Notes: generated from the sequence alone by a model not told the origin. A DNA stretch of 64,000 nt from a bacterium (GCA_021813945.1 JAKAJD010000002.1:173936-237935), one strand, 5' to 3'. Shown: positions 56,440-63,772, counted from the first letter of the stretch. Made by a program: numbers and translations.

Positions 56440-56757
56440 ATGGAAAAGCAAAATACCGTGCAATACTATTTAAAAAGTCCACAAAAAAAAGCAAAAGACT
56501 TTCGACATAATAACGCATATAAAAAAATCCTCACATTAGCGCTTCAAAATCAGGTGAAGACAGATGATATCTATCAAAAAACTGATGTCGCTGAGGGCAG
56601 AAAGGAACGAGGACGAATAATAGGGACTATGATTAAAAATTTAGTTCAATGGGGCTTCTTATCAAAAACAGGAAATATGGATAAATTATATCGACAAGAA
56701 ATTTTCAGTTTAAATGAAACATTTAGAGAAGAAATCAGAAGGTTGGTAGAAGGATAA
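56440..56757 (+). CDS. Hypothetical 105-aa protein immediately upstream of hsdM (possible regulator)
   Basis: The ORF ends 3 nt before hsdM. No recognisable motif. Confidence 0.4.
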   Translation: MEKQNTVQYYLKSPQKKAKDFRHNNAYKKILTLALQNQVKTDDIYQKTDVAEGRKERGRIIGTMIKNLVQWGFLSKTGNMDKLYRQEIFSLNETFREEIRRLVEG

Positions 56758-56759
56758 TT

Positions 56760-60647: not shown

Positions 60648-63600
60648 ATCAGTTTAGTGAAGACAATTTAGTTGAACAGACTGTTATAAAACTCATCAAG
60701 GAAACTTGGGTTGATGAAAACTGTCACATAAACGCTTTTACCGATGTTGAAGACGCGAAGCTTGGACGAGATAATCAAGGTGAAGTAGTTCTAAAAAAAT
60801 ATTTACTTCTAGCTCTTACCAAAATAAATTCATCTCTACAAAAAGAAGCCATAGACCAAGCAGTTGCCGAACTCACCCGCGACAGGTCGAACATGCAACT
60901 GGTCAAAGCAAACGAAGAAATATACAAACTTTTAAAAGATGGGTTCAGTATAAATATCAAAAAAGAAGATGGAGGAAGCGAACCTGAAAAAGTAAACTTT
61001 TTTGATTTTGAAAACCCAGAAAATAACAATTTTCTCTGTATTTCTCAACTTTGGGTAGTTGGAGAAATGTATACTCGAAGACCAGACTTGGTTTTGTTTG
61101 TCAACGGAATTCCTCTGGTTTTAATGGAACTAAAAGCTTCTCACAAAAGCTTAGTTGATGCTTACCGCGATAATATTCGCGATTATAAAGACACTATCCC
61201 ACACTTATTCTGGTACAACATGGGAATTGTCATTTCCAATGGGATTGAAAATAAATTCGGATCCTTAACTTCGCCATTTGAATATTTTAATGAATGGAAA
61301 AAAATTGAAAGCGAAGATGACGATCCGAAAAAAGATTTGGCAACTTTGATAAAAGGAATTTTTGAGAAAAAGAGATTTTTGGATATTTTCGAAAATTTTA
61401 TTCTCTTTGACAGCTCTCGCGGCGAAACAAAAAAGATCGTTCCCAGATACTTTCAATATTACGGGGTAAATCGCGCTTTCGAAAGAGTAATAAAGCGAAA
61501 AGAACTGGATGGAAAACTTGGGGTTTTTTGGCACACTCAAGGAAGTGGAAAATCTTTTGCCATGGTCTACCTTTCCCAAAAAGTTTTTAGAAAAATCACA
61601 GGTAACTTTACATTTATTATTGTTACCGATCGCGAACAGCTAGACGGACAAGCTTACGATAATTTCGCCAATGTTGGTGCAGTTTACGAGGGAGATGAGG
61701 TTCATGCAGATTCAATACTTAATTTAAAACAGCTTCTAAACCAGGATCACCGGCAAATATTTACTACAGTACAAAAATTTCAAGATGTTTTAGGTACCAT
61801 ATCGGATAGAGACGACATTATTGTCATGACCGATGAAGCACATCGAAGCCAGTACGACACTTTTGCTCAAAATATGCGAAAGGCCCTACCAAACGCAGCA
61901 TTTATTGGCTTTACTGGAACGCCGCTCATGAAACAAGGAGAAGAGAAAACCAGAGAAACTTTTGGTGAATATGTTTCCGTCTACAACTTCGGCCAATCGG
62001 TCAAAGATGGTTCAACCGTTCCACTCTATTATGAAAATCGCGTCGCGAAACTGGAAAATGTAAACCCACAACTAGAAGACGAACTTGGAAAGTTAATGGA
62101 TTATTACGAATTAAATGATGAGGAAGAAGAAAAAGTTGAACGTGAATTTTCTACTTTTTACCAGTTAATAACTCGAGAAGACAGGCTGAATGCTATAGCG
62201 CGCGATATTGTACAACATTTTGTCGGACGCGGTTATCAAGGAAAGGCGATGGTAGTTTCTATTGATAAAAAAACTGCCGTCAGAATGTATGACAAAGTAA
62301 AAAAAGAATGGGAAAGGCATTTAGCTAAACTGCGACTTGATCTTTCGCGGGAAGAAAATGAATTTGAACAAGGAAAAATCCAAGAAAATATTGAAAAACT
62401 GGAAAAAGTAGATATGGCAGTTGTGGTTAGTCAATCGCAAAACGAAATTGCCGACCTTGAACCTTTTGAAATAGACATGCGACCACTACGCGCTCGAATT
62501 CAAAAGGAAGATCTAGAAGAAGAATTTAAAAAAGATGGTAGCAATTTAAAAATCGTTTTTGTGTGTGCCATGTGGCTAACTGGTTTTGATGTCCCAACTC
62601 TTTCAACGCTTTACCTTGATAAACCTTTAAAAAATCACACTTTGATGCAAGCTATTGCACGAGCCAACCGAATAGCAGCTGGAAAAACAAACGGAATGAT
62701 TGTGGACTACATTGGGGTTTTCAAAAACGTTGAAAAGGCGTTAGCCTTGTACGCCGCAACTAAAAGTGGAGATGATGAAATAATTAAAAACAAAGACGAA
62801 CTTTTGGGAGATTTACAAAAGGTTCTAAAAGAAACTAAAGAAATGTTAAAAGGACTGGAAATCGATATTGAAGTTTTGCTTAAAAGTCCAAACGAACAGA
62901 AAATTTTGCTTATAGAAAAGTACGCTAACAAGATTTTGGGGGATCAAGAAAAGAAAAAGGAGTTTTTAAATTTATCTACTGATATTTATTCGGCATATAT
63001 GTCACTTTTGCCCGATCCTTCAGCCGAAAATTATAAAGAAATAGTAACTGCTATAAAAGTAATTACCGCAAGAATACGAGACGTTGGGGCGCAGAGTATT
63101 GATACCTCACCCGTAAAAAAGGATTTAGAGCTTTTACTTGATAAATCGATAAGAGCTGGAGAATACGTTGTTCCTCATTACAAAAGATTAAAAGATTTAA
63201 GTTCATTGGATTTTGACGCCTTACATGACTTTTTCTACAAACTCGAAAACAAAAATCTTCAGGTGGAAACACTAAAAGATGATTTACAGAAAAAGATTGA
63301 AGAGATGATGAAGAAAAATAAAATACGCGCTAAGTTTATGGATAGACTTTTAGCGATGTTAAATATGTACAACTCTGGAGCGCACGATATCGATCAATTG
63401 TTTGATGATCTGGTAAAACTTGCCCAAGAACTTTCCAAAGAAGAGCAAAGATCAGTCAAGGAAAATCTTTCTGAAGAAGAGCTAGCAATATTTGATTTAC
63501 TACTGAAAGAAAATTTGAATCCAGGCGAGCGGGAAAAAGTAAAGAAGACTGCAAAAGATCTTTTGGCAAAACTTAAACAAGAAAAACTTGTCTTAGATTG

Positions 63601-63772
63601 GCGAGAGAAAGAACAAACCCGAGCCGGGGTAAAAACAACTATTTCTGATATTCTATACAACTCACTCCCTGAACCTACTTACTCAGAAAAAGATTGCGAA
63701 ATTAAAGGACTAGAAACTTACAATTTTGTTTATGAGCACTATATAGATGCTAAAACCTTAGCTTACAGCTAA
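60644..63772 (+). CDS. hsdR: Type I restriction-modification system endonuclease/helicase subunit
   Basis: 1042 aa. N-terminal PD-(D/E)xK nuclease region (…RPDLVLFVNGIPLVLMELK…). SF2 helicase motifs including TDEAHRSQ (DEAH box) and …GFTGTP…. HsdR C-terminal domain. Confidence 0.9.
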   Translation: MNQFSEDNLVEQTVIKLIKETWVDENCHINAFTDVEDAKLGRDNQGEVVLKKYLLLALTKINSSLQKEAIDQAVAELTRDRSNMQLVKANEEIYKLLKDGFSINIKKEDGGSEPEKVNFFDFENPENNNFLCISQLWVVGEMYTRRPDLVLFVNGIPLVLMELKASHKSLVDAYRDNIRDYKDTIPHLFWYNMGIVISNGIENKFGSLTSPFEYFNEWKKIESEDDDPKKDLATLIKGIFEKKRFLDIFENFILFDSSRGETKKIVPRYFQYYGVNRAFERVIKRKELDGKLGVFWHTQGSGKSFAMVYLSQKVFRKITGNFTFIIVTDREQLDGQAYDNFANVGAVYEGDEVHADSILNLKQLLNQDHRQIFTTVQKFQDVLGTISDRDDIIVMTDEAHRSQYDTFAQNMRKALPNAAFIGFTGTPLMKQGEEKTRETFGEYVSVYNFGQSVKDGSTVPLYYENRVAKLENVNPQLEDELGKLMDYYELNDEEEEKVEREFSTFYQLITREDRLNAIARDIVQHFVGRGYQGKAMVVSIDKKTAVRMYDKVKKEWERHLAKLRLDLSREENEFEQGKIQENIEKLEKVDMAVVVSQSQNEIADLEPFEIDMRPLRARIQKEDLEEEFKKDGSNLKIVFVCAMWLTGFDVPTLSTLYLDKPLKNHTLMQAIARANRIAAGKTNGMIVDYIGVFKNVEKALALYAATKSGDDEIIKNKDELLGDLQKVLKETKEMLKGLEIDIEVLLKSPNEQKILLIEKYANKILGDQEKKKEFLNLSTDIYSAYMSLLPDPSAENYKEIVTAIKVITARIRDVGAQSIDTSPVKKDLELLLDKSIRAGEYVVPHYKRLKDLSSLDFDALHDFFYKLENKNLQVETLKDDLQKKIEEMMKKNKIRAKFMDRLLAMLNMYNSGAHDIDQLFDDLVKLAQELSKEEQRSVKENLSEEELAIFDLLLKENLNPGEREKVKKTAKDLLAKLKQEKLVLDWREKEQTRAGVKTTISDILYNSLPEPTYSEKDCEIKGLETYNFVYEHYIDAKTLAYS

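Follow-up and report, generated by a model that had tools for sequence, protein, structure and literature searches.

In the EcoprrI type Ic restriction-modification (R-M) operon, the slot between hsdS and hsdR is occupied by the gene for PrrC. Among ribonucleases (RNases) embedded in this way, PrrC is to our knowledge the only one understood mechanistically, and such enzymes are regarded as a backup for restriction systems whose DNA cleavage is blocked by phages. The EcoprrI R-M complex keeps PrrC inactive until a phage anti-restriction peptide frees it (PMC3710099). In 2013, DUF3644 was assigned to the HEPN superfamily as family EC042_2821, which occurs in R-M operons, forms fusions to winged helix-turn-helix (wHTH), restriction endonuclease (REase) and Zn-ribbon domains and was compared with PrrC, and the idea of a multi-pronged defence was proposed for 16 R-M-linked HEPN clades (Anantharaman et al., PMC3710099). 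The criterion that defined the later PDC families was a location of the genes inside BREX, DISARM or type I R-M systems (Payne et al. 2024, bioRxiv 10.1101/2024.01.29.577857). Here we describe a gene, called X below, at positions 59574..60647 (+) of a 64,000-nucleotide stretch of bacterial DNA (GCA_021813945.1 JAKAJD010000002.1:173936-237935; the window), where it lies between the hsdS and hsdR genes of a type I R-M operon. We have very little doubt that its product is a DUF3644 (EC042_2821-type) HEPN protein with the corresponding fold and a member of the PADLOC candidate family PDC-S19. By analogy with PrrC, the best overall explanation, and one that we regard as reasonably likely to be right, is that X would be a latent RNA-cleaving effector serving as a second line of defence.

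The assignment of X to its family was obtained with two independent collections of profiles. X passed the Pfam DUF3644 model (PF12358) with 40.9 bits against a cutoff of 27.6, over residues 10-154, and matched two PADLOC PDC-S19 profiles, PDLC04951 (E=6.8e-144, residues 1-347 aligned to a profile of 357 positions) and PDLC04947 (E=3e-95). Judged by this full-length hidden Markov model (HMM) match and by its embedding between hsdS and hsdR, X is the same as PDC-S19, and nothing different was detectable. DUF3644 was also matched by 29 of 31 distant members of the X family. A weak Pfam RnlA_toxin match was centred on the Rx4H motif described below, and NCBIfam gave zero matches for X. The sequence-only reading had left X unassigned and possibly undescribed, which these matches and the HEPN description of 2013 refute; the profile searches gave no confident placement in a non-nuclease family. 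X is a further member of a known, bioinformatically predicted kind of system. In total, 2744 homologues were scored, the family held 784 cluster representatives at 50% identity with E<=1e-3, and an identical X protein with the same operon was found on 11 metagenome contigs, of which the longest has 975,962 bp; therefore X is not a chance ORF (open reading frame). Relatives were present in 249 species-representative genomes, reaching into many phyla of bacteria and at least two lineages of archaea. The closest of them came from assemblies labelled Saccharibacteria and Woesebacteria, so the DNA probably stems from a CPR-type bacterium with a small genome.

The two signature motifs of catalytic HEPN domains, Rx4-6H and Ex3[KR] (PMC3710099), were both found in the N-terminal HEPN domain of X (residues 1-134; 59574..59975, +). 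The sequence-only reading had pointed to TLRDAAQHH, residues 98-106, as an Rx4H motif of the HEPN type. This motif, R100-D-A-A-Q-H105 (59871..59888, +), holds the predicted RNase catalytic residues and was kept in 46 close and 31 distant homologues, so the loss in orthologues that would have spoken against the proposal was not seen in them. In the 46 close homologues, at 52-82% identity, R100, D101, A102, A103 and H105 were invariant. Among the 31 full-length members, which reached down to 26% identity, the sole invariant residues were E44, K48, R100, H105, E112 and R145, and these include the ends of an Ex3K motif, E44-M-L-L-K48 (59703..59717, +), invariant in all 31 sequences. The invariance of both HEPN motifs across the X family is new here.

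The fold pointed the same way. In the AlphaFold model of X (predicted local distance difference test score, pLDDT, 78.8), the N-terminal helical domain was confident and has the modelled four-helix up-and-down bundle of HEPN proteins. In structure comparison, the nearest neighbours of this fold were HEPN/HepT-type proteins, the toxins 5yep and 7ae2 among them. With the full model, Foldseek returned nothing at E<=0.001; its top match was a HEPN domain, 2hsb, the sole meaningful one, and the remainder was membrane-helix noise. A profile search of solved structures with X gave just a marginal MatB match (E=0.25) in the C-terminal region. Profile search, structure prediction and fold comparison thus bear out the HEPN domain that had been read from the motif and its helical setting.

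Behind the HEPN domain, X has three further parts. A helical middle region (residues ~143-229; 60000..60260, +) contains the invariant R145 and has model helices at residues 157-171, 179-196 and 205-216; among known folds it resembled only generic helical hairpins, IST1 for example. Next comes a conserved stretch (residues ~230-272; 60261..60389, +) of the form FPGVA...GPS.DL..TK.EGIP..VPEGTPGA, which has many invariant columns. In and just before it, W221, F225, V228, A229, G237, K248, G251, P253, V257 and G260 were invariant in the 46 close homologues. Residues ~230-272 had pLDDT below 50 in both AlphaFold models, though they are among the most conserved of the family; they may form an interaction surface, and they may fold only upon partner binding or oligomerisation. 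The last part is a predicted wHTH of the MerR/excisionase type (residues ~274-353; 60393..60632, +). The C-terminal stretch that had been called helix-turn-helix-like, STQLAKKLGITEPKLRALV (residues 282-300), coincides with two helices of this modelled winged helix, which has its predicted recognition helix at residues ~293-302 and probably binds nucleic acid or docks X. This fold assignment for the C-terminal domain, taken from the model, is likewise new here.

The operon around X is that of a complete type I system at 56760-63772, as judged by Pfam and PADLOC. On the plus strand, hsdM (56760..58337, 525 amino acids) encodes the methyltransferase subunit, with matches to Pfam N6_Mtase (E=9e-86) and HsdM_N (E=1e-20) and to PADLOC MTase_I (E=1e-185), and hsdS (58334..59605, 423 amino acids) encodes the specificity subunit, whose two target-recognition domains matched Pfam Methylase_S in two stretches (E=3e-27) and PADLOC Specificity_I (E=2e-73). 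X (357 amino acids) follows, and then hsdR (60644..63772, 1042 amino acids), the restriction/translocase subunit, with Pfam HSDR_N, SWI2_SNF2 (E=8e-69), T1R_D3-like and T1RH-like_C matches and a PADLOC REase_I match (E=2e-184). Inside the T1RH-like C-terminal domain of HsdR, residues 878-922 (63275-63409) also gave a weak Pfam match to DUF4145, a HEPN-type family (E=0.0018, below cutoff).

The ORF list reproduced all five ORFs of the sequence-only reading, namely these four and a small one upstream of hsdM, together with their coordinates and the overlaps of 4 nt between hsdM and hsdS, 32 nt between hsdS and X, and 4 nt between X and hsdR. With the subunit matches, these junctions confirm a type I R-M operon that carries a tightly coupled extra gene. 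Read from the sequence, a ribosome-binding site (Shine-Dalgarno), AAGGAG, lies at 59557..59562 (+) within the 3' end of hsdS, 11 nt upstream of the X start codon (ATG), and the X/hsdR junction is ATGA, the ATG of hsdR overlapping the stop codon of X. X is transcribed together with hsdM, hsdS and hsdR. Because its translation is coupled to hsdS upstream and to hsdR downstream, X is made together with the restriction complex, and its co-expression with hsdS is obligatory in this operon. A promoter and terminator scan of the operon showed no enrichment over shuffled sequences (20 promoter-like sites against 21.8, and 2 terminator-like sites against 5.8) and no conserved operator-like repeat; since there was no enrichment, the scan leaves the promoter of the operon undefined and reveals no internal terminators.

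Compared with the described relatives, X shares with the EC042_2821 family the HEPN fold with Rx4H and Ex3K, the occurrence in R-M operons and the fusion to a wHTH. The type protein of that family, in contrast, has a C-terminal REase-fold domain of ~180 amino acids, with Zn ribbons in some members, whereas X has the modelled MerR-like winged helix and no Zn-ribbon cysteines. The Pfam model for the EC042_2821-type REase-fold domain, PF18740, scored on X only at E=0.085 (13.9 bits against a cutoff of 24.9, residues 286-338), and 2 of 31 relatives reached E=1e-4. In the accessible part of the supplementary text of the Payne preprint, the terms 'PDC-S19', 'DUF3644' and 'PF12358' do not occur.

X resembles PrrC in its HEPN-type RNase domain, in which R and H are essential in PrrC, and in the proposed logic of a latent RNase that backs up restriction. 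The two differ in architecture: in PrrC the HEPN domain is C-terminal and an ABC-ATPase regulator forms the N-terminus, whereas in X the HEPN domain is N-terminal, a winged helix forms the other end and there is no ATPase; no sequence relation exists beyond the superfamily. It had been noticed from the sequence that X lacks a Walker A motif and is therefore not PrrC. This stands, as Pfam detected no ATPase domain in X and the sequence contains no GxxxxGK[ST]; with neither an ABC/Rad50-like ATPase nor a Walker A, an anticodon nuclease of the PrrC/RloC kind is ruled out.

The Hma-embedded protein HEC-08 of E. coli ECOR52 was described as having an N-terminal DUF3644-type HEPN domain and a C-terminal nucleic-acid-binding-like module, and a mutant in the histidine of its Rx4-6H motif loses defence (Payne et al., bioRxiv 10.1101/2024.01.29.577857). 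As described, this architecture and the embedding in a defence system are like those of X, but the C-terminal module of HEC-08 consists of zinc ribbons, whereas X has a winged helix and lacks the Cys clusters of HEC-08. Homology between the two was rejected, since hhalign gave a probability of 0.5% for the X family against HEC-08. When the HEC-08 sequence (Payne et al. Table S2) was run against current Pfam, the sole HEPN-related match was a weak one to HepT-like_2 (E=0.13). Because HEC-08 fails DUF3644, the literature label 'DUF3644' spans proteins that current models do not unite in one family. The Ishtar anti-plasmid proteins are single proteins that combine an N-terminal HEPN domain (DUF4145 or DUF3644) with a C-terminal mixed alpha/beta domain and are often found near defence genes (bioRxiv 10.64898/2026.07.06.735840). 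The Ishtar homologues examined have 164-261 amino acids and an R-N-x-x-E-H motif, compared with 357 amino acids and Rx4H in X. Six X signature peptides were all absent from the accessible part of the Ishtar supplementary text, and hmmsearch with the X profile found nothing significant among six Ishtar homologues. Membership of X in Ishtar (Ist1/Ist2) is thus rejected on sequence, although the published architecture is similar.

The genomic habit of the family was surveyed at 80 loci with X relatives in species genomes, where type I subunits were detected by phmmer with the subunits of this window as queries, and where neighbouring genes were also clustered and scanned with Pfam. The order hsdS-X-hsdR, which the sequence-only reading had suggested looking for in related genomes, was found in 33 of the 80, with 0-6.7 kb between X and hsdR; two more had hsdS-X at a contig end, 12 had other type I arrangements, and 33 had no type I genes at phmmer sensitivity. 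X therefore stood in or beside type I systems at ~47 of 80 loci. Wherever an hsdS-X junction was present (34 of 34 loci), X began within -10 to +17 nt of the end of hsdS, and the two genes overlapped by 4 nt in 20 of them; the X-hsdR junction was tight in only ~14 loci. Genes lying between X and hsdR included Schlafen/AlbA_2-HATPase (12 loci), GmrSD-AlbA_2, Fic/DUF4172, AbiEii and Abi_C.

Outside type I systems, six loci (L032, L043, L046, L054, L055 and L083) had the order Res-(small gene)-Mod-X, in which a Mod-like N6_N4 methyltransferase of ~690 amino acids lies upstream of X and overlaps it by 4 nt. In L010 (1-2642), the end of an MmeI_TRD protein, named for its target-recognition domain (TRD), overlaps X by 4 nt. 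One locus had the order Mod-Res-X, one had NurA and an N6_N4 methyltransferase, three had DUF499+HEPN_Swt1 systems (Hma / BREX-related), and others without type I genes had SMC/ABC ATPases and helicases nearby. X relatives were also present in 13 plasmid records, annotated in RefSeq as 'DUF3644 domain-containing protein' or as 'hypothetical protein'; one plasmid copy was alone near an integrase and one was beside a Dcm/Eco29kI type II system. A search of phage records for X relatives returned none. From these contexts (type I, type III-like, type IIG-like, solo and plasmid), X is a mobile defence-island gene. Whether the system is type I, type III-like or type IIG-like, X comes after the specificity-bearing gene; the place right behind the gene with R-M target specificity is the preferred one, yet X can exist alone.

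As an observation apart from X itself, many X-bearing type I operons hold second or third embedded genes, such as those of the Schlafen/AlbA_2-HATPase_c_4, GmrSD_N+AlbA_2, AbiEii and Abi_C kinds (for example L056 6604-8007, L052 9189-11318, L044 9669-10604 and L051 7112-7963), so that several putative effectors are stacked in one R-M operon.

By analogy with PrrC, we propose that X would be a metal-independent endoribonuclease that stays silent in healthy cells. When a phage or plasmid is sensed, or when restriction fails, X would cleave RNA and halt translation, following the logic of PrrC in the EcoprrI operon but without the ATPase regulator of PrrC. The parts of this proposal do not carry the same weight. 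RNase activity is quite probable, and a role in defence is rather likely, while control of X by the R-M complex in the manner of PrrC, which rests on the analogy, is a tentative suggestion to which we give distinctly less than even chances. The abortive-infection effector of the sequence-only reading, activated once restriction is blocked, is likewise a putative one, drawn by analogy from PrrC. The trigger and any physical link between X and the R-M complex are putative as well.

Several points weigh against a latent effector run by the restriction complex. The literature yielded just the 2013 analysis, and we found no published experiment on PDC-S19/EC042_2821; HEC-08 is a validated protein, but apart from the shared superfamily no relation to X was detectable and the current DUF3644 model misses it, so its result transfers only weakly to X. 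Some HEPN domains are non-catalytic binders, MtlR being an example (PMC3710099), and the hsdM-hsdS-X-hsdR operon shows no sign of an antitoxin or regulator that would restrain a toxic RNase. In ~19 embedded loci, X and hsdR are separated by 1-6.7 kb of further genes. Dependence of X on an R-M complex cannot be general, since ~33 of the 80 copies lack type I genes at the sensitivity used, a few of them lying amid housekeeping genes (L012, L064) or alone on plasmids.

These last findings also suit a different account. In it, X works autonomously as a single-gene defence or toxin module and only hitch-hikes in R-M operons for co-mobilisation and expression; it senses its own trigger, for example through the winged helix and residues 230-272, and is linked neither functionally nor physically to HsdM, HsdS or HsdR. 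The 'S' in PDC-S19 marks a single-gene candidate in PADLOC, some copies on plasmids stand alone or next to a type II R-M system, and many unrelated defence genes are embedded likewise (Payne et al., bioRxiv 10.1101/2024.01.29.577857), so that the solo copies and the variable cargo in front of hsdR favour an autonomous sensor-effector. The junctions speak for something else. That all 34 hsdS-X junctions are close, and that six Mod-X pairs and one MmeI_TRD-X pair overlap by 4 nt, suggests stoichiometric co-production beyond passive hitch-hiking, and so tight a coupling to a specificity or methyltransferase gene points to a relation of X with it that is physical or stoichiometric. An autonomous module is a real alternative, with less than even chances but hardly less probable than control of X by the R-M complex. 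One can also imagine X as mainly a DNA-binding regulator or accessory R-M subunit, one that times hsdR expression or tunes restriction through its winged helix, with the HEPN domain as a non-catalytic dimerisation or ligand-binding module. The modelled MerR/excisionase-like C-terminus, the position of X directly upstream of hsdR with overlapping codons and the existence of non-catalytic HEPN domains such as MtlR (PMC3710099) would fit such a role. The invariance of both catalytic-type motifs down to 26% identity is unexpected for a purely structural HEPN domain, however, and the family also turns up where R-M genes are absent, as well as next to type III, type IIG, Hma/DUF499 and other systems, while neither an operator-like repeat nor an enriched promoter signal was seen in the operon. 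With R, H, E and K all invariant, a purely regulatory or structural X is unlikely, and we consider this account very improbable.

The kinship of the HEPN fold of X to the HEPN/HepT type, to which the toxins 5yep and 7ae2 belong, together with a HicAB pair and other mobile or defence-type genes just upstream of the operon, could further suggest that X acts as the toxin in an addiction system of the toxin-antitoxin kind, through which the R-M island would be stabilised, as in HEPN-MNT pairs. Neither an MNT nucleotidyltransferase nor another small cognate partner adjoins X here, however, and neighbour clustering in the 80 loci found no recurring partner, just R-M and assorted defence genes. Since the partner gene is missing, the classical HEPN-MNT arrangement is excluded, and we give an addiction role hardly any credence.

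The small ORF that abuts hsdM (56440..56757, +; 105 amino acids) stops 2 nt before it and had been thought a possible controller protein. It had no match to HTH_3 or to any other Pfam, PADLOC or NCBIfam model, and it was absent from the 80 other X loci. As a controller (C-protein) of an R-M system, it would be expected to be an Xre/HTH_3-type protein of ~80-100 amino acids upstream of the restriction gene; it is not recognisable as one, as the ORF has no HTH_3 match and precedes hsdM, not hsdR. Nine relatives at 62-68% identity share 41 invariant columns with it, and by this conservation it is a real gene of a tiny family. By phmmer, its relatives do not precede hsdM, and each is tightly joined to a differing downstream gene, with an overlap of 4-14 nt or, in L086, a gap of 7 nt. 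Two of them (L085 8001-8324 and L087 2085-2411) lie before a PLDc_2+ResIII/SNF2 helicase-nuclease, two (L088 2244-2576 and L089 1759-2076) before an HNH endonuclease, in L089 also with a NUMOD3 motif, and one (L086 3513-3830) before a RadC-like UPF0758 gene. The relatives thus precede unrelated nuclease genes. A regulatory role is possible: the small ORF may encode a winged-helix-type regulator, and its family may supply restriction and nuclease cassettes with a portable leader or regulator, not with a controller specific to hsdM.

Further upstream, a HicAB toxin-antitoxin pair lies just before the operon (HicB-like 53523-53753 and HicA 53756-53977, positions by offset from L001), followed by a DUF3800 protein (54592-55215) with a weak PADLOC PDC-M04A match (E=4e-13) and zero NCBIfam matches, and by a class I SAM (S-adenosylmethionine) methyltransferase (55446-56249). 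Together with the operon, these genes at ~53520-56250 suggest a small defence/toxin-antitoxin island.

Beyond the proposal of a latent RNase as fallback, the placement of X invites a broader and rather speculative one, to which we assign a low probability, namely that PDC-S19/DUF3644 proteins in general guard the specificity-bearing methyltransferase module of restriction systems. In type I systems X is coupled behind HsdS, in type III-like systems behind Mod and in type IIG systems behind an MmeI-type TRD. X would co-assemble with that module, its MerR-like winged helix and residues 230-272 would act as the docking or sensing surface, and an attack on the module by a phage anti-restriction protein would release the HEPN RNase. 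If this were true, a single sensor-effector design would serve in three R-M classes. PDC-S19/DUF3644 is a large family known from sequence, and the operon described here, a clean and compact hsdM-hsdS-X-hsdR example without extra cargo in an apparently small genome, could serve as an experimental model for it. While the classification of X is unchanged by our results, their main value lies in this minimal operon and in the rule that X stands directly behind the specificity gene across three R-M classes. That X almost always starts within a few nt of the end of the specificity gene, an observation new here, provides a testable hypothesis on how the effector may be controlled.

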